Assembly (NCBI GenBank): GCA_021513695.1
Contig: CP084166.1
Coordinates: 2,848,001-2,912,000, forward strand
Reading direction: 5' to 3'
DNA from: Candidatus Heimdallarchaeum aukensis
GTDB taxonomy: Archaea; Asgardarchaeota; Heimdallarchaeia; Heimdallarchaeales; Heimdallarchaeaceae
DNA length: 64,000 nucleotides
Shown one piece after another: positions 2,691 to 43,937 of the stretch (its first letter is position 1; every line of letters starts with the position of its first letter). The translations under genes and the position numbers were made by a program. Below the pieces are notes generated by a model. The model saw only the letters and a list, made by a program, of their open reading frames with translations, was not told where the DNA came from and ran no database searches.

Positions 2691-3773
2691 CTAATTAGAA
2701 ACCTCCCCTTTGATAAATTTCTCAACAAGATCATGTGCAATAGGGTCAGGAATTTGCTTGGGAGGATGTTTGAAGAAGTAACTAGAAACACTCTCTAATT
2801 TTCCACCTATCCCACGATCTTTAGCAATCTTAAGAGCTCGAACAACATCAATCATAACTCCTGCAGAATTAGGAGAATCTTGAACACTAAGTTTAAGTTG
2901 AACAGTTATTGGTTGTTCACCGAAATTCTTTCCTTTAAGCCACAAATAACAAACTTTCTCATCTTCTAGGAAAGGAACATAATCACTTGGACCAATACGA
3001 GTAGGAACTTCATAAGGAATCATACTAGTAACAGCTTCAGTTTTAGAGACACGTTTTGTTTGTAGTCGATACTCTTTTTTCATATTTTCAAAATCAGTGT
3101 TTCCTCCAACGTTCAATTGAAAAGTTTCATCGATCTTTATTCCTCGCTCATGAGCAAGACGGACAAGCATACGATGAAGAATAGTTGCACCTAATTGAGA
3201 TTTTATGTCATCTCCCGCTACTGGTACGCCTTTTTCTGCAAATTTTGCAGCCCATTCTTCATTACTTGCTATAAAAGCAGGAATACCATTAGCAAAGGCA
3301 ACGTTTGCATCAAGTGCTGCTTGAGCATATATTTTTGTAGCTTCTTCAGAACCAACAGGTAAGAAATTTATTAATACATCTGTTTTAGTTTCTTTCAAAA
3401 CTTTAGCTACATCTACAGGTTTAATTTCGTTCTCATCATAACAATAGAATGATTCTCTCATGTGTGGGGCTACACCATCAGAAATGGGGCCAGGCAATAC
3501 AGTTACTCCCTTGTGTGGTACGTCAGCAAACTTATTGCACACGTTGGGTGGTTGCCAAATTGCTTCAGAAATATCTTTCCCTATTTTCATTTTATTAACT
3601 TCGAACGCTGCTACCACTTCTACATCTCTAATGTGATAAGGTCCGAACTTTACGTGCATGATTCCAGGAACAAAATCATCTTCTTTGGCATTTTTGTAAT
3701 ATTCTAATCCTTGAATTAGCGCTGAAGCGCAATTTCCTAGTCCAGCAATCGCAATTCTTACTTTTTCTGTCAT
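2691..3773 (-). CDS. myo-inositol-1-phosphate synthase (archaeal type)
   Basis: IAIAGLGNCASALIQG Rossmann start. AGDDIKSQLGAT...NVGGNTDFENM matches the eukaryotic/archaeal MIPS GDDFKSGQT...NHLGNNDG catalytic block. 360 aa. Confidence 0.75.
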   Translation of the reverse strand: MTEKVRIAIAGLGNCASALIQGLEYYKNAKEDDFVPGIMHVKFGPYHIRDVEVVAAFEVNKMKIGKDISEAIWQPPNVCNKFADVPHKGVTVLPGPISDGVAPHMRESFYCYDENEIKPVDVAKVLKETKTDVLINFLPVGSEEATKIYAQAALDANVAFANGIPAFIASNEEWAAKFAEKGVPVAGDDIKSQLGATILHRMLVRLAHERGIKIDETFQLNVGGNTDFENMKKEYRLQTKRVSKTEAVTSMIPYEVPTRIGPSDYVPFLEDEKVCYLWLKGKNFGEQPITVQLKLSVQDSPNSAGVMIDVVRALKIAKDRGIGGKLESVSSYFFKHPPKQIPDPIAHDLVEKFIKGEVSN

Positions 3774-26885: not shown

Positions 26886-28376
26886 TTACAGATCGAAATT
26901 TTTTGCCACTTGTTCTAAATTCTTTGTTTCGAGGTTTTTTGTTATCCTTTCTCTTACTTTTACATAAATTGGATGATTAACTGCATTTCCTACTACAATT
27001 GCTTCTCCTACACCAAGAGTAGTTATCGAGTTCAAAGTATCTCTATCAATACCTTCACTAGTTCTTCCTATGAATTCGAGATCGTAAGGGTTCATTATTT
27101 TCATAATGATTTGTGTATTACACTGACTAAGCGTAGTTGTTGAAAGATTCACAGGCCTTTGACTAATAAGTATCAAAGATATGAAAAATTTTCTTCCTTC
27201 TCTAGCAATAGTGTTTATTATAGGCCTTGAAATAGCTAAACTCAATTTACTTTCAGGAGCAAACTGATGAGCTTCTTCCAAAATTACCGAAACAGGGGGA
27301 ATCTCTGATTTTTTTCTTAATTCGAATAATCTTGAAAGAGTGTATGAAACAATCATCTGTTTCTGTCGTAGGCTAGTAAAATCACTTAAATCAATAATTA
27401 ACAATTTTCCTGGTTTAGTTTTTTCTTTTAAGTCAGGAAATTCCTTTACACCGAAAAGTTTTGTTTTTTTTAGTTCAAACAACCATCCATTAAGGGCATC
27501 TTTAGTTCGTTGATTCATTCGTTCATCGTTTTCTATTTCCTCCATAATATCAGAAATCGTGTAACTGACTCCCTTTTTCACTTTCTCATTGTACATTCTC
27601 CCAAGAATAACATATAGTTCTCTTAGTTGTACTGGACTTATATCTGGTTGAAAATTTGCAAATTGAGCTGCAGAAATAGAGTGTGTTGCAAATTGAATAT
27701 AACTAGCAGATATAACTTCTATTTGTTCACTTAATTCTGCTCCAGTTTCTTTCAGTCCTTTGTATTCTCCATGAACATCGAACAGAATAGTAGCTATTCT
27801 ACCTTGTTCTTTTTTTCTGTTTAGTAGCTCCTCTAAAAGAACAGAAACTGTATACGATTTTCCTGCGCCACTTATTGCAAGTATAGCTAAATGTTTTTGT
27901 AGAAATCTAGTAAGGTTTAATTTTACTTTTACATCATGATGTTCTAACTTTCCGATATACAAACCATTATTTTGATCTAGACCTAAAAATTTTGAAAGTA
28001 GGCTTGCATCTGCTAGAAAAACATTGTCTCCTGGACTAACTGGGTGTTGTAATCGTTTTACACCTTTTTTAGTATGAATGCCTAATGCTTTTGCTTTGGC
28101 AATAATATATTCCCAACTATCAGCAGGAAAAATTGAAGCTAATGTTTTTCCACTTGTTTCATAAGCTTTTACTGCAGATGGAGAAGAAAAATATCTGTTC
28201 GTTTTTATAATATCTTTTACTTGCGCTATTACTTTTCCCTCTTCTTCTGGTGTCTCAACTACGATGTACATATCTCTTTTTAACTGAAAATCCTTACTAT
28301 CTTTTGTTATTACAAAATGGAATTCAGAAGGATTAGGGGTGTTTTGTGTTACTATTACTGTTCCTATCATTTTCAT
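26886..28376 (-). CDS. HerA-like ATPase (DUF87 hexameric helicase/translocase)
   Basis: 496 aa. Walker A AISGAGKSYTVS. Walker B-like LLIIDLSD...ILEEAHQFAP. N-terminal barrel domain. Immediately downstream of a NurA-like gene. Confidence 0.7.
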   Translation of the reverse strand: MKMIGTVIVTQNTPNPSEFHFVITKDSKDFQLKRDMYIVVETPEEEGKVIAQVKDIIKTNRYFSSPSAVKAYETSGKTLASIFPADSWEYIIAKAKALGIHTKKGVKRLQHPVSPGDNVFLADASLLSKFLGLDQNNGLYIGKLEHHDVKVKLNLTRFLQKHLAILAISGAGKSYTVSVLLEELLNRKKEQGRIATILFDVHGEYKGLKETGAELSEQIEVISASYIQFATHSISAAQFANFQPDISPVQLRELYVILGRMYNEKVKKGVSYTISDIMEEIENDERMNQRTKDALNGWLFELKKTKLFGVKEFPDLKEKTKPGKLLIIDLSDFTSLRQKQMIVSYTLSRLFELRKKSEIPPVSVILEEAHQFAPESKLSLAISRPIINTIAREGRKFFISLILISQRPVNLSTTTLSQCNTQIIMKIMNPYDLEFIGRTSEGIDRDTLNSITTLGVGEAIVVGNAVNHPIYVKVRERITKNLETKNLEQVAKNFDL

Positions 28377-28380
28377 TTTA

Positions 28381-29523
28381 TTAACTCCATGGATTTCTTG
28401 CTCTTCTTTTTTGGAGCGAAAAACTAGAATAACCTATTCTAGAAGATATTTCATCTATCAAAATATCTGCATCGTCTTCCCTTATTTTAGCTCTAGCATC
28501 AGCTTCTATTATTACGCTAGGCAAACCGTATTCAGGATGAAAAGTTGAAATAGAACAAATTAGAGAAGAAATTGTTTGAGCTAGATTTGTACTGTCTGAA
28601 AATAGTACAGGAAATTCGACTCTAAGGGGTGTATCGTATTCTGCTGTTTTAAGATAAAAAAAGTGAATATCGAAGTCTTCTAAATCTTTTTCGTGCTCGT
28701 TAAATTTGCTCAGATGCGATTCAAATGTTCTCTCATTTATATCTAAAACGTTGAATAGTAAGTCTGTATCTCGTAATTGTTTAATAATAGGTCTATAATC
28801 AATATCTAATAATTCTTTAAATTCTGGTCTTTTACTCAAATGAGGAAGAATTAAAGAGAGTTTTCTAGTTAATATAGCAGACCTAGAATCTTTTATCACT
28901 CCACAGAGTAAGCAACGTTTTTTTCGAGAGAGAGTATACAATCTCCTATAAAGAGCTTTAAGCCTGAGATATTGAGAAAAAAGAAAATCATTGCCTTGGA
29001 TACTTTTAACATCAATGACAGGTAATACAGAACCATCTAAAATAAGAATATCAGGAGAATCGTTTTCCAGTAAATCTATTGCACACCGTATTTCTTTTTG
29101 TATTCGCCATAAAGCAATAAGATAATCTATTTCATTTTGAGCTAAAGGTTCAACACTTGTTAAAATATCAGGAAAAGGATTTTTTTCTGGAAAATACTTC
29201 ACTTTTGGTTTTTCATCTTTGTTGTGATAGAACAGCACACCTACAGCTCTAATAAGAGCAACATCAAAAAAATTCATGCTTCTGTGTATTATCCCTCCGT
29301 CTACTCCTGCATATTTTAAACCTGTAGTAGATGATTGTGGAACTCGAACTATAAAACTTGTGTCCTTTGTATTAAATTGAAAAGCTTCAGGAAAACTAGA
29401 AGGATCCAGTTGATACTTAACTTTTCTAAATAAATCTTGGAATAATTTTCTGTGTTTATTGTATTCCTTAATTACCTTAATTATGTTGCTTATGGCTTGT
29501 TCTAAATTCTTTTTTTCGCTCAA
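28381..29523 (-). CDS. NurA-like nuclease
   Basis: 380 aa. AGVDGGI active-site-like aspartate stretch and ILILDGS motif, consistent with the NurA 5'-3' nuclease family. 4-bp gap to the HerA-like gene. Confidence 0.55.
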   Translation of the reverse strand: MSEKKNLEQAISNIIKVIKEYNKHRKLFQDLFRKVKYQLDPSSFPEAFQFNTKDTSFIVRVPQSSTTGLKYAGVDGGIIHRSMNFFDVALIRAVGVLFYHNKDEKPKVKYFPEKNPFPDILTSVEPLAQNEIDYLIALWRIQKEIRCAIDLLENDSPDILILDGSVLPVIDVKSIQGNDFLFSQYLRLKALYRRLYTLSRKKRCLLCGVIKDSRSAILTRKLSLILPHLSKRPEFKELLDIDYRPIIKQLRDTDLLFNVLDINERTFESHLSKFNEHEKDLEDFDIHFFYLKTAEYDTPLRVEFPVLFSDSTNLAQTISSLICSISTFHPEYGLPSVIIEADARAKIREDDADILIDEISSRIGYSSFSLQKRRARNPWS

Positions 29524-31934: not shown

Positions 31935-34169
31935 TTAAAAGAAATCATCTAAACTTTTTTGTGAGGAAGTAGAAACTGTTTCTTGTTCAAATTCTGTTTC
32001 TAAATCTTCTAAAGAAAAGTCTGCTTCTCCAGTATGAACAAATTTGAGAATTGCTTCAGCTAATTCTTTGCCAAAACGAGGAAGTTTAACTAAATTTTCA
32101 ACTTTTGCTTTTCTTAAATCTTCTAAAGACTTGTATCCATTATCATATAATGCTCGAGCACGTACTCTTCCTATGCCTGGAATCTGTGTAAGATCAAGTA
32201 ATTCTTCTTTTATTCCTACTTTTATCCTTGAATGAAGTCTCTTTATTTTTGTAGCTATTTCAGAATAACCTAGTAGTTCAGCTAATTCTCCTCCAGAATA
32301 GAGTATCCATTCTGCGTTTGAAATTATATTGTAAATATCACCACTTCCAATTCCATATCTGCTGAGTATTGTGTCTTCTGGAACTTCATTAATCCAATCT
32401 CTAATAACCAAAGCTGTCTTTAATTGGCTCAAAAAAATATCTATTTCAGCGTAACTTGAAGGGAGTTCTGTCAAAATCTCATCTTCATGTTCAGTAACAA
32501 AATTCATCAGAGGAGTTTGATCAGGTTTTCTATAAGTGATAAATCTCACATCAGGGGTAGAACAAATAAGATGAAGAATAGATATTTCTGTCACTAACTC
32601 TTTGGGCATTCTATTTGCTCTTTCTAGTCCAGAACGAATAATTACTGCACTTCTGGGGTCAATATATAATTCACTTACTCTTTTTCCGAATCTAGTGGGC
32701 AGTAAGACTTCAGGATTATTCTTAACTAATCCTTCTTCCTTAAAAAAGTCTATTACAGATTTAATTAGAGATGATAGATTTACAGGATTTTCTTTATAGC
32801 CATAGAAAGTTTCACTAATGAAATCAAACAATTCTTCCATAGTTCTTGTGTTTTCAGTTGCTATTTGACCTAAAGTTATACGACGTAAAGCAGGTTCAGA
32901 AGCTAATCGCGATTCTATGTCTTCAGTATCTGCAATAATATATCGAGAATAGAGGTCCTGGGCTTCATCTTCATTTCTGGCTACGACGATAGCATCTCCT
33001 TCTTTGTCATATTGAGGACGTCCTGCTCTTCCTGATTGCTGTTTAAACTCAAGAACAGGAATAGGATGACTCCCTAAACTGGTGCTATATCTGTAAATAC
33101 TTTTGATTATCACAAATCGTGCTGGTAAATTTATTCCTGCAGCGAGTGTAGGAGTTGAAGTAAGTATCTTTATATTTCCTTTTTTAAACTCTATTTCTAT
33201 TATCCTTCTTTGAATAGGACTTAAACCTGCATGATGAAAAGCAACACCAGATTGAACAAGTTTGGCGATTTGTTCTGCTTGTTTTGTCCCAGAACTCTGT
33301 TTAACTATTCTTGCTGCAGCTAAAGATAAACTTTCTTTCTCTTTTTGTGTTAGAATTTTGCTTACTTTAGAAGAAACTTTTTTTGCTGTAGTCTCTGCTG
33401 TTTTTCTTGTAGTAAGAAATACAAGTGTTTGATATTTTTTCTTTAGAACATAATCAAGTAAATTAAGAAAAGAGTCTTTGTAAGTTAATGGGATGGAGAC
33501 ATTTTTCAACCCCTTGTAAATAATAGTATTTCCATAGATAACTCCCTCGTGCAACTCTACAGGTCTCCAAGTACTAGATACAAGATTTGCTTCTAACCAT
33601 CTGGATAGCTCATCAGCATTACGAATCGTGGCGCTAAGAGCAATTACTTGTACTTCAGGGTTCTTTTTTAACTGTGCTAAAACAACTTCTAATGTAGGCC
33701 CTCTGTTCATACTGTTGATTAAATGAACTTCATCAGAAATGACTAAACCAACTTTTGATAGCCATTTGCTTTTATGTCTCAGGGCTGAATCTATTTTTTC
33801 GTTAGTTGCAACTATTATGTCTGCATACATGGCTCGATTATCTTCAATGTCATAGTCACCAGTGAGTAAAATAGTTCTTTTTTTTAATTTAGAAAAGAAC
33901 TTTTTGAATTCGAGATATTTTTCATAAGCTAGGGCTCGTAAAGGAGCAAGGTAAAGGACTTTGTAAGAAGTTTCCTCTACTTTTTTTACTGCAGCTAGGA
34001 GAGCTAAAAGAGTTTTTCCAGAAGCAGTAGGTATTGCTATAACAAGATTATCCCCATCTAACAATCCTTTTTTTACTGCTTCAGTCTGAGGAGGATAAAG
34101 TGAACTTATTCCTTGTTTTTCTAGTTCTTCAATAATTTCTTTAGGAATAGGCAATTCAGCAATCTTCAT
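31935..34169 (-). CDS. Ski2-like DNA helicase Hel308/Hjm
   Basis: Walker A AIPTASGKTL, DEVH box, SAT motif ALSATIRN, QQSGRAGR motif VI. C-terminal helix-hairpin-helix LTQIPGIGRVRARALYDNGY. 744 aa. Confidence 0.8.
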   Translation of the reverse strand: MKIAELPIPKEIIEELEKQGISSLYPPQTEAVKKGLLDGDNLVIAIPTASGKTLLALLAAVKKVEETSYKVLYLAPLRALAYEKYLEFKKFFSKLKKRTILLTGDYDIEDNRAMYADIIVATNEKIDSALRHKSKWLSKVGLVISDEVHLINSMNRGPTLEVVLAQLKKNPEVQVIALSATIRNADELSRWLEANLVSSTWRPVELHEGVIYGNTIIYKGLKNVSIPLTYKDSFLNLLDYVLKKKYQTLVFLTTRKTAETTAKKVSSKVSKILTQKEKESLSLAAARIVKQSSGTKQAEQIAKLVQSGVAFHHAGLSPIQRRIIEIEFKKGNIKILTSTPTLAAGINLPARFVIIKSIYRYSTSLGSHPIPVLEFKQQSGRAGRPQYDKEGDAIVVARNEDEAQDLYSRYIIADTEDIESRLASEPALRRITLGQIATENTRTMEELFDFISETFYGYKENPVNLSSLIKSVIDFFKEEGLVKNNPEVLLPTRFGKRVSELYIDPRSAVIIRSGLERANRMPKELVTEISILHLICSTPDVRFITYRKPDQTPLMNFVTEHEDEILTELPSSYAEIDIFLSQLKTALVIRDWINEVPEDTILSRYGIGSGDIYNIISNAEWILYSGGELAELLGYSEIATKIKRLHSRIKVGIKEELLDLTQIPGIGRVRARALYDNGYKSLEDLRKAKVENLVKLPRFGKELAEAILKFVHTGEADFSLEDLETEFEQETVSTSSQKSLDDFF

Positions 34170-34236: not shown

Positions 34237-37200
34237 TCACGCCATGCGTATTATCCCCTCACGAGGAGAATAGAGTTCACCATTTTCTCTTAATTGTCTA
34301 ATTACTTTGTCTACAAAATCTCCGTCTATTGAGTACTCTTTTTCAGCAATTTGTTTAACTTTGTTAATAGAAACCTCATTGGAAAAACCTTTCTTCGTTT
34401 CTTCTTTTATAATATCGATAACTTTTTGGAGATTACTTCGTTCACTTCTTGATGTTCCTTGTAAAAAGTAATCTACATCTACTTTTCCAGTTACTGGGTC
34501 TCGTCCTACTTGTTGTAGGGATTCTGTAAGAAGACGAATAGCTGCTTCAGCATGATCAATTGTTACATCTTCTTTTAGAGCCATTCTTGCTTGTGCTTCT
34601 GAAAGACGAATAATGGCTTCTAAATACCTGGGTGTAATAGCAATAGATTTTTTGTCTGATTGTTTTCTGAGATCAAGATAGAATTTTTCTATTCTACGCA
34701 TAGCTTCATCAGTTAATGAAGGTTCAATGTTTTGTTTAGCATAACTAATATATTTTCTTAAAAGATCCATAGAAATAGGAGGTTCTGCAGTAGCTGATAT
34801 TTGTCCTCTTCTTAATTCTAAAATATGTCTAGCCATATTAAGGTCGCTGTCTGGTTCTGGAACATCACGCATAATGTAGATAAGATCAAAACGAGAAATA
34901 ATTGTAGCGGGTAGATTAATATTGTCAACTGGGTGAGAGTTTTCCTCATATCTACCAAATTTAGGGTTAGCAGCAGCAATAATAGCTGTTCTTGCATTAA
35001 GCTGAGCAACGATACCCGCCTTGGCTATGCTAACGGTATTGTGAAGTATTAGTCCCCCTGCAATGAAGGTTTTTGTTGGAATTACAGTAACATCATAAAC
35101 CCATTTTGCTTTAAATTTTCCTTTGTTCTCTATTATTTCAACGTTTTTAACTTTAAGCCATTTGAAATTTAGCATACTTTCAATATAGCTTATTTGATTG
35201 TTGACATAATTAATTTCTTCTTTTAGAAATTGCTTGATCTGAGAAAGAAGCGAAGTCCTAACTTGTACGGTGTAGCCCCCATTCTCACAGTAATCTATTG
35301 TTGAACGGGTACTTTTAATTAATCTTGCAATTCCTGCTTGTGAATAACCAACGAATTCTCTCAGTTCACGAACATTATTTATTTCATAGATTTTTTGGTT
35401 AATGATGTTAATTCTTCTTTTTAATTTCTCTAATTCTCGTTCTACAACAAATTTTGCAATACTATTGTTAAATTTAATATTACCATAGAATCTTCCATTA
35501 TATACCATTCCTAGTCTTTTCATGCAATCAATTAAGCTGATTGCTGTTTCGACTGGTAAAACATCTCTTTTTTTGTGGTTTGCTTTAGTTCTGCTAATGA
35601 ATTTTTTTATTTTTGGATTGTCAGAATGGTGTGGAATAATTTTCCTTACAAAATTATCTAGACTTTCTGCTAAAATATAAACTTTATATCTATATTTTGT
35701 TTTTTTACTTTTGGGCGTTGTATACTTACTTTTATGTATTATAGTAAAGATATCTAGACTTAAGAGTAAATCTTGGTAGTCAACTGCAAGCAATTTTGAA
35801 GAAGTTGAAAAACTAACCGCTTCACTTTCTATTGATCCGTCACCATCAAAAGCAGCAGATAAGAAGGCAATCCGACAATCGTTATCTGCTTCAAATATTT
35901 TTTTAGGTATGCGCTTATAAATACTCTTTTTCATTAACTCTGGGAAATTTTTTGCCATAAAATTATACAATGATTTAGATATGATGCGTAAGACACGTCT
36001 TTTTTCAACGTTATCAATTGGTTCAATACCAAAAGTTGACTTAATAATTTCCTTCATTTCTGATACTATTTTTGGATCATAATTACTTAATCCCACTTCC
36101 ATTGATGAACCACTATAAGAATAACCTTCTGAAACGAAAAAGCCTAAAAACTTGGCTAAAGAGGTATTCATTTTTGTTGGTAGTCGAATTTTTTTATTTC
36201 CTAGTGAGATATCAGTATCTAAAGTGCTATTTGTATTAAAAACTAGATTTTTTACAGCTGGTATAAAGGATCCTTTTTTAACATTTTCAGCAGCTATTTC
36301 TCTTATGATCCCTTTGTGAAAAACGAAGATTGGGTGTTCTGGTGTTACAACAATATCTCTACCATTAGAATATGTGATTTTAATAAAATAGTCTGGTGCT
36401 GTATGACGACTGACACGGTCAATAATTATCGGAAAAGTGTCTTTGAAATCAGTTGTTTGAATGTTGATATTTAAATCTGAAATAGGTAAAATCTCACAAT
36501 TAATACCGTTAACTTTGCGTTCCGGATACTTATCAAATAAAGAATCTACTAGTGAACCAATTTGTGTTACAGTTCCATCAGATAATCTAATTTCAAACAT
36601 AGGATGAAAAGAATGCTGTTCCATAGCTTCATGTATAGCTGAACGATCATGTGCAGTCATTTTGTCGAATTCATCAATTGTGGCTAAACCACGATCTGCC
36701 AGTACTAAAGCTCCCGCTTCCAAAGAAAACTCTCCTGTGTCAGGGTCTCTAACTACTGCTGCAGTGTTGTGAGTAATAAACCCATTAACTATAAAATTGT
36801 GCGTTTGTGGGACAGTTAAGTCATAAACATATTCATCTTCTTTTTCGATAAATTCAACTTTAGTTACTTCATCCCAAAATATTTCGCTTGAAAGGAGCGA
36901 TTCTATAAGTTTAATATCTTGCTTCAACTCAGTGTTTGTTTTACAACTTGATTTAATTTCGCTGATGATACTCTCAATTTCTTTTTTATTGCTATTCTTA
37001 AAATCCAAAATTATGTTGTTATTAAAACTAAGGGTTGTGTTATTACAAAGATTGATTTTTTCTATTAATTCACCTAATAGTTGTTCTATGCAAGAAGCTA
37101 CTTTTCCATCTACTAAACTATCCTTTAAGTCTTTAGAATTTCTTTCTTTAGGGTTAATTGTTCCAACTAAATCTCCTTTAATCAAATCTTTAGCTTTTAT

Positions 37201-38637
37201 CCATACTATTCCTCTCTCTGAAAGAGTGAGAAGAGGAGTCTGTTGAGTTAATTTAATTGTCCTACCACTTTTAGATGAAATCTTTACTAATAAACGAGGA
37301 CTTTTGATTTTCCAGAATTTTTCAATTTTAGCAGAATTGATTTTTAAGTTAGAAGAATTTAAAATAGAATTATAATTTGAATCTGTTTCTAGATTATTTT
37401 CAACAAACCAGAAACCTTCTTGGTATTCTTGTGGTTTGTTGTTTTTAAACTCTCTTTCTACAATGTTTACTATTTTTTCAACCTTATTTTCAAAATATAT
37501 TTCACTATCTGCTGCAACACATAGTCCTGCTGCTGAACTTGCTCGCCCTGAAGTAAAAATACCTCGGGGAGCTAATCTGTTTGCAAAATGAAGAAGTTGG
37601 CTTTTTCCTACACCAGGATCACCAACTAATAATAGATTTGATTCTCCTCTCTGTTTCATTCCATCCGGTGTAACTCTGGAAACTCCTCCAAAGAGTACAG
37701 TAGCAATTGCCTCTTTGATGATTTCATGACCGTAGATAGAGGGAGCGATTGAACGAATGATTTTGTTATGAATGTTAATGTCTCTGGAAAGTTCTAGAAT
37801 CTCTTTTTCGGTGTCAGGATCAATTTCTAATTCTTCGAATTCCTTCTGTCTAGATGCAGCAAAATTGACCTCTAACCAAGGATCAAAAGTAGCCAACTGT
37901 TTCTTTTTTTGTTGTAAAGACGGTTTCATTCTAAGAATACCGTTAACAATTGCTCTATCTCCTGCTCTAACAACATCTACTAAATCTCCAACTAAGTATG
38001 CAGGAAGAGAGCGAGGAATTTGACCAGGAGGAAGGTTTTCTGGCTTTTCTTGAATAGTAATTGTCTGGATATCAGTGTAAGATGATTCTTCTGGAAGGAG
38101 CTTGAAAGGACCTTTTTTTCCACAATCGGGGTTACTACACTGGACAGGTTCAGAATAATAACCTAAATCTTGATCCCAGCTCATTATCTCCCCACAACGG
38201 GTACACTGGAAAACTCCTTGAATAAGAAGAGGTTTGACAACAGATTGACGAAGAACAATACCTTCAACCGAAATAAATTTCCCTAAATGAGTAGCTCGAA
38301 CATGACGTAGATCAACTATGTCCGGGATGTTTGCAAATCTTACTTTGAACCATTGTCTATTTTCTTGTGCATAACTCAAATCTTCTATAGAAATGACTTC
38401 AAAAAGTGCTTCATCTGCATCTTGAAACATAGTTTCAGGTTCGTCTCTAATCATCTGTGCAAGTCCAGGGTCATAACGCAAAATGTCATCATAATTGACA
38501 TAGAGAGAAGTTAAGCCCTCTAAAACCATCTTCTGAATTTGTTCAGTGTAAACATATCTACCATTTTCGTCCATGTAACCTTGAAAAAACTCTTTGAATC
38601 GTTCTGAATACCCTTTTGCAGTTGTATCAATATGCAT
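34237..38637 (-). CDS. mcm: MCM replicative helicase precursor containing two inteins
   Basis: N-terminal Zn finger CTRCGEIMSW...CSNPDCG. P-loop GDPGVGKSQ. GRASSAAGL|C...HN|TAAVVRD and IDEFDKM...EAMEQH|S...HN|TVSIAKAGI mark intein junctions. Extein sum is 689 aa. C-terminal winged helix. Confidence 0.9.
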   Translation of the reverse strand: MHIDTTAKGYSERFKEFFQGYMDENGRYVYTEQIQKMVLEGLTSLYVNYDDILRYDPGLAQMIRDEPETMFQDADEALFEVISIEDLSYAQENRQWFKVRFANIPDIVDLRHVRATHLGKFISVEGIVLRQSVVKPLLIQGVFQCTRCGEIMSWDQDLGYYSEPVQCSNPDCGKKGPFKLLPEESSYTDIQTITIQEKPENLPPGQIPRSLPAYLVGDLVDVVRAGDRAIVNGILRMKPSLQQKKKQLATFDPWLEVNFAASRQKEFEELEIDPDTEKEILELSRDINIHNKIIRSIAPSIYGHEIIKEAIATVLFGGVSRVTPDGMKQRGESNLLLVGDPGVGKSQLLHFANRLAPRGIFTSGRASSAAGLCVAADSEIYFENKVEKIVNIVEREFKNNKPQEYQEGFWFVENNLETDSNYNSILNSSNLKINSAKIEKFWKIKSPRLLVKISSKSGRTIKLTQQTPLLTLSERGIVWIKAKDLIKGDLVGTINPKERNSKDLKDSLVDGKVASCIEQLLGELIEKINLCNNTTLSFNNNIILDFKNSNKKEIESIISEIKSSCKTNTELKQDIKLIESLLSSEIFWDEVTKVEFIEKEDEYVYDLTVPQTHNFIVNGFITHNTAAVVRDPDTGEFSLEAGALVLADRGLATIDEFDKMTAHDRSAIHEAMEQHSFHPMFEIRLSDGTVTQIGSLVDSLFDKYPERKVNGINCEILPISDLNINIQTTDFKDTFPIIIDRVSRHTAPDYFIKITYSNGRDIVVTPEHPIFVFHKGIIREIAAENVKKGSFIPAVKNLVFNTNSTLDTDISLGNKKIRLPTKMNTSLAKFLGFFVSEGYSYSGSSMEVGLSNYDPKIVSEMKEIIKSTFGIEPIDNVEKRRVLRIISKSLYNFMAKNFPELMKKSIYKRIPKKIFEADNDCRIAFLSAAFDGDGSIESEAVSFSTSSKLLAVDYQDLLLSLDIFTIIHKSKYTTPKSKKTKYRYKVYILAESLDNFVRKIIPHHSDNPKIKKFISRTKANHKKRDVLPVETAISLIDCMKRLGMVYNGRFYGNIKFNNSIAKFVVERELEKLKRRINIINQKIYEINNVRELREFVGYSQAGIARLIKSTRSTIDYCENGGYTVQVRTSLLSQIKQFLKEEINYVNNQISYIESMLNFKWLKVKNVEIIENKGKFKAKWVYDVTVIPTKTFIAGGLILHNTVSIAKAGIVAQLNARTAIIAAANPKFGRYEENSHPVDNINLPATIISRFDLIYIMRDVPEPDSDLNMARHILELRRGQISATAEPPISMDLLRKYISYAKQNIEPSLTDEAMRRIEKFYLDLRKQSDKKSIAITPRYLEAIIRLSEAQARMALKEDVTIDHAEAAIRLLTESLQQVGRDPVTGKVDVDYFLQGTSRSERSNLQKVIDIIKEETKKGFSNEVSINKVKQIAEKEYSIDGDFVDKVIRQLRENGELYSPREGIIRMA
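35038..36612 (-). mobile_element. intein 2 in MCM (525 aa, Ser1...His-Asn, +1 Thr) with LAGLIDADG homing endonuclease domain
   Basis: Insertion inside the conserved EAMEQ(Q/H)-TISIAKAGI block. Starts SFHPMF, ends AGGLILHN. LAGLIDADG-like motifs LAKFLGFFVSEGY and IAFLSAAFDGDGSI. Confidence 0.8.
36766..37521 (-). mobile_element. intein 1 in MCM (252 aa, Cys1...His-Asn, +1 Thr), mini-intein or degenerate endonuclease
   Basis: Insertion between the conserved MCM residues SSAAGL and TAAVVRD. Starts CVAADSEIYF, ends FIVNGFITHN. No clear LAGLIDADG pair. Confidence 0.8.
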
Positions 38638-42529: not shown

Positions 42530-43315
42530 TTGAGTTATATGTTTCCCAATGCAGTTCAACCACAAAAAAATCTTCTACCTTTTGGTATTCCAAGTTTAGA
42601 TGAAATTCTAGGAGGAGGTATTCCAACAGGTTCTATAGTCTTAATAGAAGATGAAATAGGTGCAGAGGCTAATCCATTTATTTTACAGTTTTTAGCTGAA
42701 GGATTAAAAGCAGGTCAATATGGATATATTATGGCAACAGAACACCCATATGAATACTTTTCTGAAATGTTATCAGGAATAGGCGTTAATACAGACATGC
42801 TTAAAGCTACAGGAAGATTGAAATATATTGATGCTTTCTCCAATCCCTTTGGATATACTGACCTTCGTTCTGAACATGATCTTGCAGTAAGAAATATTAG
42901 TCAACCACGTGAATTAAATGAAATTATAAGAAGAGCTTTTCTTCATGTGAGAGATCAAAATGTAATCAAAAGAGGAATTGTAAGCTCGCTATCATCTATT
43001 ATTTATGCTACTGATGAATCAAAGAAGACGATTTTTTCTTTCTTACAAAATAGACTCGCAAGCAATAAACTTGATGGCTCAGTAACTCTATTCTCTTTGC
43101 ATTATGATGCACATCCAAGGTTACTAGTTAAAGCTATAGAACACTTGAGTGACGTAACAATCAGAGTGAAAAAAGGTTTCACAAAAGAAGAACGACCTCT
43201 AAACGAAGTACAAGTAATCAATATTAAAGGTAAACCCGAACTTGCCGGGGAAAGTGTACAATTTGAGTTCATTTCTGGAAAAATTATCCCATATTATGAA
43301 GAAAACCTATTCTAG
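42530..43315 (+). CDS. KaiC/RecA-like domain protein lacking a P-loop (pseudo-ATPase)
   Basis: LPFGIPSLDEILGGGIPTGSIVLIEDEIGAEANPFILQFLAEGLKAGQYGYIMATEHP matches the KaiC-like start (GIPGLDELLGGG...G). The Walker A GxxGxGKT position reads EDEIGAEA. 261 aa, overlapping the downstream GTPase ORF. Confidence 0.55.
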   Translation: MSYMFPNAVQPQKNLLPFGIPSLDEILGGGIPTGSIVLIEDEIGAEANPFILQFLAEGLKAGQYGYIMATEHPYEYFSEMLSGIGVNTDMLKATGRLKYIDAFSNPFGYTDLRSEHDLAVRNISQPRELNEIIRRAFLHVRDQNVIKRGIVSSLSSIIYATDESKKTIFSFLQNRLASNKLDGSVTLFSLHYDAHPRLLVKAIEHLSDVTIRVKKGFTKEERPLNEVQVINIKGKPELAGESVQFEFISGKIIPYYEENLF

Positions 43316-43937
43316 TTTTGATCAAAGTATTTTTTTTTCATTTATTAACACCATTAGATTTATTAATTTAGATTGTTTGTTTTATTTGATAAGTTTGTCA
43401 TTCGATTATTTGTTCAAGACAATAATTGTTGGAGACCCAAATGTTGGAAAAACTTCAATTACACTCCGATTTTCAACTGGAACTTTTAGAGAAAGATATC
43501 TTTTTACTATAGGCGTAGAATTTAGTGTTAAAGATATTGAAGTCGATGGAAACAAGGTAAAAATTCAAGCTTGGGACACTGGAGGACACGATAAATATTC
43601 CTATATTCGTCCGTTGTATTATAAGGGGTCATATGGAACATTAATTGTTTATGACATTACCAACAAAGCATCATTTGAAAATTTGAATAAATGGTTTAAA
43701 GAAGTATATGATAACTGTGAAACAACAATTCCTGCTATTCTAGTTGGAAATAAAAACGATTTGGAAGAACAGAGAGAAGTAACAAGAGAAGAAGCTTTAA
43801 AATACGCAGAAGAAATGAGTAAAGAATATAATTTGGAAAATATTCCTTATTTTGAAACTTCAGCAAAAACAGGTGAAAACGTCGACGATATCTATTTTGA
43901 ACTAACAAGATTAATGATTAAAAAATCAAACATGTGA
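43296..43937 (+). CDS. Rab/Ras-like small GTPase with His at the catalytic Gln position
   Basis: G1 GDPNVGKTS. Rab-like switch I YLFTIGVEF. G3 WDTGGHD, where canonical is DTAGQE. G4 GNKND, G5 ETSAKT. Start is ambiguous: Met at 43296, an upstream Met at 43242, or an internal TTG. There is a ~50-aa N-terminal extension before G1. Confidence 0.8.
   Translation: MKKTYSSFDQSIFFSFINTIRFINLDCLFYLISLSFDYLFKTIIVGDPNVGKTSITLRFSTGTFRERYLFTIGVEFSVKDIEVDGNKVKIQAWDTGGHDKYSYIRPLYYKGSYGTLIVYDITNKASFENLNKWFKEVYDNCETTIPAILVGNKNDLEEQREVTREEALKYAEEMSKEYNLENIPYFETSAKTGENVDDIYFELTRLMIKKSNM

Follow-up and report, generated by a model that had tools for sequence, protein, structure and literature searches.

A doubly intein-interrupted gene for the MCM replicative helicase in Candidatus Heimdallarchaeum aukensis

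In this study we describe the gene for the MCM replicative helicase of the Asgard archaeon Candidatus Heimdallarchaeum aukensis, which lies in a stretch of 64,000 nucleotides (nt) of contig CP084166.1 (positions 2,848,001 to 2,912,000; hereafter the window) and carries two in-frame inteins. We regard it as very probable that its product of 1466 amino acids (aa) is a precursor from which two class-1 inteins excise themselves to leave a 689-aa helicase, and that the second of them, here called intein 2, is capable of homing and is polymorphic. We consider the anatomy of the precursor, the family membership and insertion sites of the two inteins, the conservation of their catalytic residues, the regime of selection on them and the existence of an allele with an empty intein-2 site to be established.

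The interrupted gene and its predicted product

The open reading frame (ORF) of the precursor starts with ATG and occupies 34237..38637 on the minus strand of the window, as do all features of the gene given below. Its product is deposited as GenBank UJG40688.1, from the closed 3.08-Mb genome of this organism, under the product name 'hypothetical protein', and close relatives of this protein carry the name 'LAGLIDADG family homing endonuclease'. By exact string positions, intein 1 covers ORF residues 373-624 (252 aa; 36766..37521) and intein 2 residues 676-1200 (525 aa; 35038..36612). Intein 1 is preceded by SSAAGL and followed by TAAVVRD, and it runs from Cys1 to His-Asn with Leu at -1 and Thr at +1; intein 2 is preceded by EAMEQH and followed by TVSIAKAGI, and it runs from Ser1 to His-Asn with His at -1 and Thr at +1. 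Excision of both leaves exactly the 689-aa MCM that a first-pass annotation of this DNA had proposed, and the lengths, flanks and terminal residues that it gave for the two inserts hold as well. Its account of the inserts is slightly imprecise in that it puts intein 1 just after the P-loop: the insertion point is 27 residues downstream of the Walker A Lys, with the spacing SQLL...SSAAGL/T, and insertion into the P-loop proper is known from other MCM inteins, at a site distinct from this one.

The host protein is distributed over three exteins. The N-extein (aa 1-372; 37522..38637) contains MCM_N, the OB fold with its Zn finger and the start of the AAA+ domain with Walker A, and ends on SSAAGL; the middle extein (aa 625-675; 36613..36765) runs from TAAVVRD through Walker B to EAMEQH; and the C-extein (aa 1201-1466 plus the stop codon; 34237..35037) begins with TVSIAKAGI of the pre-sensor-1 hairpin and continues through the arginine finger SRFD, the lid and the winged helix. 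The catalytic motifs GDPGVGKS, IDEFDK and SRFDL, together with CTRCG...CSNPDCG, can be read directly from the exteins. In the precursor the Pfam MCM P-loop domain is matched in three fragments with 274.7 bits, and after excision it is matched once, over positions 2-223 of 224, with 314.6 bits. The spliced extein further matches MCM_N (66.1 bits), MCM_OB (127.7 bits) and MCM_lid (95.4 bits), all in order, the gathering cut-offs being 24.9 bits for MCM_N, 24.8 for MCM_OB, 23.3 for the P-loop domain and 27.4 for MCM_lid. Against archaeal MCM structures its residues 12-688 are covered, with E values of 5e-161 for 8x7t and 1.5e-160 for 4fdg, and the alignment to such structures runs free of gaps over both junctions (SSAAGLTAAVVR against SSAAGLTAAAVR; EAMEQHTVSIAKAGI against EAMEQQTVSIAKAGI), as the first-pass annotation had anticipated for an extein-only alignment. 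The exteins evolve under a ratio of nonsynonymous to synonymous substitution rates (omega) of 0.03 in comparison with either Ca. Heimdallarchaeum endolithica PR6 (CP084167.1), the closest species-representative genome, or L021, a metagenome contig of the PR6 lineage. The spliced-junction peptides to be expected are ASSAAGLTAAVVR at the intein-1 site and SAIHEAMEQHTVSIAK.

Intein 1 and its His-less block B

Intein 1 is above threshold on PF14890 (89.1 bits against a cut-off of 35.8), TIGR01445 and TIGR01443. Both inserts match splicing-domain models and have blocks A, B, F and G, so that the proposal of the first-pass annotation to search them against intein hidden Markov models has borne out their identity. 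No relatives of intein 1 were returned by a word-indexed protein search, and an exhaustive HMMER scan with it returned 1134. We sorted the inteins in this MCM set to sites by their flanking extein motifs: 94 occupy the same site as intein 1 (...[AG]GL/C...HN/T[AGV]) and 45 the P-loop site (GxPGxxK/C...HN/S), 44 of the latter being in the block B alignment.

It is in block B that intein 1 is atypical. The block reads GRTIKLTQQT (37237..37266), keeping Thr92 at position 7 (B:7) and having Thr95 instead of His at position 10 (B:10), so that the TxxH pattern is broken. In the joint alignment, B:10 is Thr in 82, Asn in 12 and His in none of the 94 inteins at this site, versus His in 44/44 at the P-loop site; the loss of His is thus fixed over one whole, widely distributed MCM intein allele. 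The Asn at B:10 (e.g., VTPEN, VTMDN) represents a second His-less variant within the allele. Residues C1, T92, D234, H241, H251 and N252 are invariant or nearly so in the allele, and in 22 same-site inteins C1, H251 and N252 are invariant, as are D234 and H241 of block F. Identity to members outside Heimdallarchaeum is only 28-42%, and sequence matches that extend over the two splicing lobes have E values down to 1e-55. The Thr-for-His substitution, the only atypical catalytic feature of intein 1 and one overlooked in the first-pass annotation, is a known trait of the allele.

A precedent exists in the orthologs of Tko CDC21-1, a small group of inteins that naturally lack the block B His, have a bulky -1 Leu and still splice, a compensating Lys58 activating the N-terminal junction (PMC4031507, PMC6333167; the -1 Leu is recorded in PMC6333167). 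In Pyrococcus, the CDC21-1 inteins sit in the P-loop (GK/S), and PabCDC21-2, which has 268 aa and is endonuclease-less, lies 27 residues downstream (Beyer et al., PMC6801210). Judged by its sequence, intein 1 belongs to the Tko CDC21-1-type His-less allele, with which it shares the insertion point (...AAGL/T...), the -1 Leu, Cys1, Thr+1, the absence of the block B His and the motif W(K/R)(I/L)K. Many members of the Tko CDC21-1 / PabCDC21-2 type, PabCDC21-2 among them, are likewise endonuclease-less; intein 1 differs from that type in its divergence, its intermediate size of 252 aa and its host, which is an Asgard archaeon and not one of the Thermococcales. The missing His therefore marks a known sub-type and does not exclude intein 1 from the inteins. 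The best sequence matches of intein 1 in the PDB are the mini-inteins PabCDC21-1 and PhoCDC21-1 (6RPP, 6RPQ; E 6e-16), which share the HINT fold and an MCM host with it. Assignment to this Pyrococcus CDC21-1 allele was ruled out, since its members have the canonical block B His and sit at the P-loop site designated MCM-a (PMC6801210).

With respect to the residue that might compensate for the His, the candidates in intein 1 are K71 and K73 of the conserved WKIK, with K/R in 93/94 and K in 60/94 inteins of the allele. A 141-aa member from a Thermococcus sp. other than T. kodakarensis (P0137) has a Lys at residue 58 that aligns with K71. Presumably one of the two lysines matches Tko Lys58, and both are candidates.

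In the AlphaFold2 (AF2) model of intein 1 (mean predicted local distance difference test, pLDDT, 87.5) the HINT fold is complete, and template modelling (TM) scores to solved mini-inteins are 0.80-0.85. Its middle segment, residues 124-210 (36892..37152), consists of three helices and includes a loop of low confidence at 160-178. All 69 full-length inteins at the same site (at least 500 aa) match intein 1 in two colinear end blocks, one from residue 1 to about 120-164 and the other from about 161-204 to 252, the latter falling on the final 50-90 residues of the full-length intein. It follows that intein 1 arose by internal deletion, in line with the first-pass annotation, which had surmised it to be decayed or mini: a core of about 400 aa, comprising helix-turn-helix (HTH) and LAGLIDADG parts, has been deleted and the N- and C-terminal connecting stubs have been kept, and because these two helical stubs of the endonuclease insert remain, its size is intermediate. 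Sizes within the allele cover every stage from 141-aa minis to full inteins of 670 aa. In comparison with PR6, where synonymous divergence (dS) of the exteins is 0.40, omega is 0.03 for the C-lobe, 0.16 for the N-lobe and 0.52 for the middle, which has no indels; constraint on this segment is much looser than on the exteins (p=2e-30), and its omega lies only marginally under the neutral value (p=0.04).

Intein 2, its endonuclease and its empty site

Intein 2 scores 53.6 bits on PF14890 (cut-off 35.8) and 66.6 bits on LAGLIDADG_3, PF14528 (cut-off 22.5), and is also above threshold on TIGR01445 and TIGR01443; HTH_31, over residues 415-450, is below threshold. In its AF2 model (pLDDT 91.6), a HINT fold made of an N-lobe (about 1-120) and a C-lobe (484-525) is combined with a pseudo-dimeric LAGLIDADG core (about 145-325) and a helical module (333-480) in which a small three-helix unit stands between two long helices. 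On the DNA, the N-lobe region (residues 1-130; 36223..36612) holds Ser1, His3, Glu40, the NX motif Arg69-His70 and Thr90/His93 of block B; the endonuclease core lies at 35638..36180, the helical module, with an HTH-like unit at residues 414-443, at 35173..35616, and the C-lobe, with Asp507 of block F and His524-Asn525 of block G, at 35038..35163. Both of the LAGLIDADG motifs that the first-pass annotation had named are present, LGFFVSEGY (aa 831-839; 36121..36147) and FLSAAFDGDGSI (aa 925-936; 35830..35865), and their acidic residues are Glu162 (LGFFVSE162GY) and Asp258 (FDGD258G).

The best structural matches of intein 2 are the TliVMA (7QSS), PI-PkoII (2CW7), PI-PfuI (1DQ3) and PhoVMA inteins, and I-DmoI for the core. 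The first three share with it the HINT fold, the two-motif LAGLIDADG core and an extra domain (Foldseek E 5e-22 to 1e-17, TM 0.58-0.75), and the sequence match to PI-PkoII covers both motifs. They differ from it in host gene and site and are only 12-21% identical, and the helical module of about 150 aa that follows the endonuclease core of intein 2 has no sequence counterpart in them; presumably it is an extra DNA-binding or spacer module. All relatives of intein 2 at 35-54% identity are MCM inteins at the same site, from Asgard lineages, Thermococcus, Methanothrix and haloarchaea. Among 52 complete inteins at this site, of 166-544 aa, Ser1 is found in 49 and Thr or Ser at +1 in all; S1, H3, E40, R69-H70, T90, H93, E162, D507, H524 and N525 are invariant in the allele, D258 of motif 2 is conserved in at least 90% of members, and homologues of 35-50% identity retain the motif glycines.

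The NX motif is specific to, and important for, oxyester inteins with Ser1 and Ser or Thr at +1 (Pasch et al. 2023, PMC10189870). Intein 2 resembles these inteins in its Ser1 and Thr+1, in the placing of R69-H70 23 residues ahead of His93 of block B, and in having E40 in the preceding strand; it differs in possessing non-catalytic cysteines and an invariant His3 that is not discussed in that work, and the role of His70 is putative. Intein 2 is a full-length LAGLIDADG intein, with chemistry predicted to be of the Ser1/Thr+1 kind. The allele opens with an invariant Ser-(Tyr/Phe)-His (first three codons 36604..36612), and we came upon no account of a role for His3.

A natural control is provided by PR6, whose MCM of 941 aa has the 252-aa intein 1 and an uninterrupted intein-2 site. 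The empty site reads EAMEQHTVSIAKAGI, in the wider context ...SAIHEAMEQHTVSIAKAGIVAQLNAR..., with the junction EAMEQH-TVSIAKAGI as predicted, so the boundaries of intein 2 are confirmed to the residue. As this intein-free allele keeps the His, the His before intein 2 belongs to the extein. Among the MCMs retrieved, His stands at -1 in 12 of the 52 occupied and 6 of the 37 empty sites (Fisher p=0.59); the Q-to-H change that the first-pass annotation had thought unusual is nothing out of the ordinary, an extein variant found mainly in Asgard archaea. Intein 2 is carried in complete, in-frame form by L021 and is present in a protein from a metagenome-assembled genome (MAG), P0175, whose three exteins are 100, 100 and 99.6% identical to those of PR6. 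For the three carriers P0175, L018 and L021, extein identity to PR6 at the protein level is 99.6-100%, and since the site is empty in PR6, alleles with and without intein 2 occur in one lineage at the level of a species.

The age of intein 2 can be judged from the comparison of the window with L021, in which its dS is 0.32 versus 0.31-0.40 for the exteins; intein 2 is hence older than the species split, and its absence from PR6 is due either to precise loss or to the persistence of an allele free of it. A recent interspecies transfer had been considered because the first 76 nt of intein 2 are identical between the window and L018, with the upstream extein 87% identical, and this idea was rejected on the dS of the full-length L021 allele. 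Omega within intein 2 is 0.10 for the N-lobe, 0.13 for the endonuclease (p=1e-13), 0.29 for the helical module and 0.05 for the C-lobe. Minis of 166-230 aa exist in the intein-2 allele, so the endonuclease is dispensable for splicing in the family, and the constraint on the domain is, on these sequence comparisons, probably best explained by selection for homing.

Over 74 nt centred on the insertion point (-39 to +34), the flanks of intein 2 in the window match the empty site of PR6 without a difference, the left half being 39 nt at 36613..36651 and the right half 34 nt at 35004..35037. No other identical run in the gene is as long, the next being 61 nt (P ~0.002 given the synonymous divergence), and the tract represents a candidate recognition sequence for the endonuclease (...TCAGCTATACATGAAGCTATGGAACAGCAT/ACCGTTAGCATAGCCAAGGCGGGTATCGTT...). 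The intein-plus alleles L018 and L021 of the PR6 lineage differ from both the window and PR6 at -16 and -13. In a separate observation, the interval 36613..36891, which spans the C-lobe of intein 1 and the extein between the inteins, has a dS of 0.70-0.87 against PR6 and L021, versus 0.31-0.39 for the N- and C-exteins; the excess, about 1.5-fold over the rest of the exteins (p=0.016, Fisher), could be a footprint of recombination or co-conversion between the inteins, or could be due to chance.

Mechanism, competing explanations and known MCM inteins

From the chemistry of the two families we infer splicing, endonuclease activity and a compensating residue, along the following lines. In intein 1, an N-S acyl shift of Cys373 at the Leu372-Cys373 junction would be followed by trans-esterification by Thr625, cyclisation of Asn624 and an O-N shift, with K71 or K73, together with the bulky -1 Leu, presumably compensating for the block B His in the activation step. 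With its homing endonuclease lost to the internal deletion, intein 1 would now be inherited vertically. In intein 2, an oxyester would be formed by an N-O shift at His675-Ser676, aided by His93 and His70, and attack by Thr1201 and cyclisation of Asn1200 would follow. Both events would be needed to restore the strand after Walker A and the stretch that runs into the pre-sensor-1 hairpin; all splicing residues are kept in 4/4 intact alleles examined. Most likely, the endonuclease of intein 2 cleaves the empty site ...GAAGCTATGGAACAGCAT/ACCGTTAGCATAGCC..., whereupon repair would copy the intein in, and such homing would keep intein 2 polymorphic in Heimdallarchaeum populations. A further idea, which we regard as rather doubtful, is that active homing of intein 2 in natural Heimdallarchaeum populations lets the endonuclease-less intein 1, only 153 nt upstream of the cut, persist or spread by being carried along in the co-conversion tract, the stubs of intein 1 being a required splicing spacer and not neutral debris.

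Several observations weigh against the reading of the precursor as one with two self-excising inteins, the second of them homing-capable, and they must be set beside the alternatives that they might favour. On NCBIfam NF040949 the spliced extein reaches 849.8 bits, under the curated cut-off of 940, with a match in one stretch over positions 2-681 of 682 (the precursor scores 793.9 bits in three stretches); this shortfall is what would be expected of a divergent Asgard lineage, and the Pfam and PDB results are unaffected by it. The label 'hypothetical protein' and the splitting of the gene into two calls on several MAG contigs might suggest that the long ORF arose as an artefact of assembly or annotation, for instance by the joining of MCM to free-standing endonuclease genes, and is not one translated gene; this is scarcely conceivable. 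The same protein is found, letter for letter, in independent assemblies of two sequencing runs and in the closed genome, and intact 1466-aa versions occur in three more MAGs; the inserts are in frame, with splice-junction residues at both ends and contiguous MCM flanks, and no stop codon occurs over 4.4 kb at 30% GC. More specific to intein 1 is the absence of the block B His, the most conserved intein residue, for whose compensation there are two candidate lysines. If this loss had ended N-terminal activation, intein 1 would be dead, and the helicase would be non-functional or the 252-aa insert tolerated; the Thr at B:10 and the fast-evolving middle of intein 1 would be in keeping with this, as would the fact that of the two His-less inteins known in 2014 one is a degraded pseudogene (PMC4031507). 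We nevertheless think a dead intein 1 very unlikely, because all 94 same-site inteins, from many archaeal lineages, have Thr or Asn at B:10 and Tko CDC21-1, a member of this His-less group, splices, because the remaining catalytic residues are invariant and the splicing lobes are under purifying selection, with a C-lobe omega equal to that of the exteins, and because, in a gene with an omega of 0.03, a permanent 252 aa would be implausible in the AAA+ core strand that lies between Walker A and the helix-2 insert.

The remaining points against concern intein 2, which is as diverged between the species as the exteins are, with no sign of recent interspecies transfer, and in which purifying selection on the endonuclease domain could reflect a structural need for splicing. 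Alternatively, then, the endonuclease might be inactive and kept as a splicing scaffold, the polymorphism being a relic of old homing plus a precise loss in PR6, and it is indeed the case that some inteins require the endonuclease domain or its linker for splicing (PMC10643990, PMC6801210). We take this alternative seriously and yet hold it to be unlikely, given that E162 is invariant, D258 highly conserved and the motif glycines kept among such divergent homologues, that the domain is strongly constrained in an allele whose minis indicate that splicing can do without it, that plus and minus alleles coexist in one species-level lineage, and that the longest identical run of the gene is centred on the target site. 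Lastly, three MAG contigs of an aukensis-like strain have different frameshifting deletions or duplications in intein 2, and these broken alleles are either assembly artefacts from mixtures of alleles or real defective alleles. On one of them (L020 2862..7299; JGI Ga0366834_1026091) the MCM is broken in the helical module by a tandem duplication of 69 nt and by deletions of 8 and 24 nt (gene nt ~3143-3435, window ~35200..35495), and the pairs of gene calls P0180+P0176 and P0178+P0184 have N-lobe deletions of differing extent with the same downstream rejoining point; other MAGs of this strain have an intact MCM (P0182, P0183). An interpretation of the broken alleles as naturally split inteins is unlikely, as the calls overlap as frameshifts and conserved N-lobe strands including Cys39-Glu40 are deleted.

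In the wider context of archaeal MCMs, a reading of the gene as a precursor with a mini-intein and an endonuclease intein has precedent. The mcm of T. kodakarensis likewise combines one mini-intein with one endonuclease intein, and in the double-intein mcm genes of Haloferax mediterranei and T. kodakarensis the inteins lie close together in the AAA+ core, as they do here (PMC10643990). The Haloferax pair occupies MCM-a and MCM-d, both with an endonuclease (PMC10643990), whereas neither of the H. aukensis inteins is at MCM-a; we name insertion sites by sequence, since the labels MCM-b, -c and -d follow the order of discovery. Both inteins are members of already known MCM intein alleles, and the pairing of mini and endonuclease inteins has already been described (PMC10643990). 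Related Asgard and Thermococcales MCMs (P0025, P0024, P0026, P0039 and others) reach 1900-2400 aa with three to four inteins, further occupied sites being the P-loop (GK/C...HN/S) and a position before Walker B (...A/C...HN/CIDEFDK); one haloarchaeal MCM is also occupied at DKMR/C...HN/SEDRS. The papers describing Heimdallarchaeum genomes and Asgard replisomes make no mention of inteins.

The neighbourhood of the gene is that of a normal archaeal chromosome, with a Hel308-type helicase, CTP synthase, NurA/HerA, an Sm protein and an Arf-family GTPase. The Hel308/Ski2-type helicase directly follows MCM (31935..34169, minus strand), the NurA-HerA pair lies further downstream (26886..29523, minus strand), and an Arf/Ras-family small GTPase, typical of Asgard genomes, lies upstream (~43296..43937, plus strand); gene order around MCM is kept in PR6 and in MAG contigs. 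A phmmer search of all ORFs of at least 80 aa in the window returned no other inteins, and no tRNAs were found in the window.

The replicative helicase of this flagship Asgard genome is at present effectively unannotated, the only MCM gene annotated there being the 'hypothetical protein' described above. MCM serves as a single-copy marker in the replisome phylogenies that place eukaryotes by Heimdallarchaeia, and the inteins must consequently be excised before alignment. The His-less allele, in 94 of 94 inteins, broadens the known Tko CDC21-1 exception and leaves the concept unchanged. PR6 and H. aukensis, together with the MAG alleles, offer a clean contrast, found in nature, of plus and minus alleles at a defined target site of 74 nt, in which homing and the effects of neighbouring inteins on each other could be studied outside the haloarchaea. 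If intein 1 does hitch-hike with its neighbour, this gene would represent a natural test, in the archaeal lineage closest to eukaryotes, of whether a mini-intein can home by means of a neighbour's endonuclease, a question that has been raised for double-intein mcm genes.

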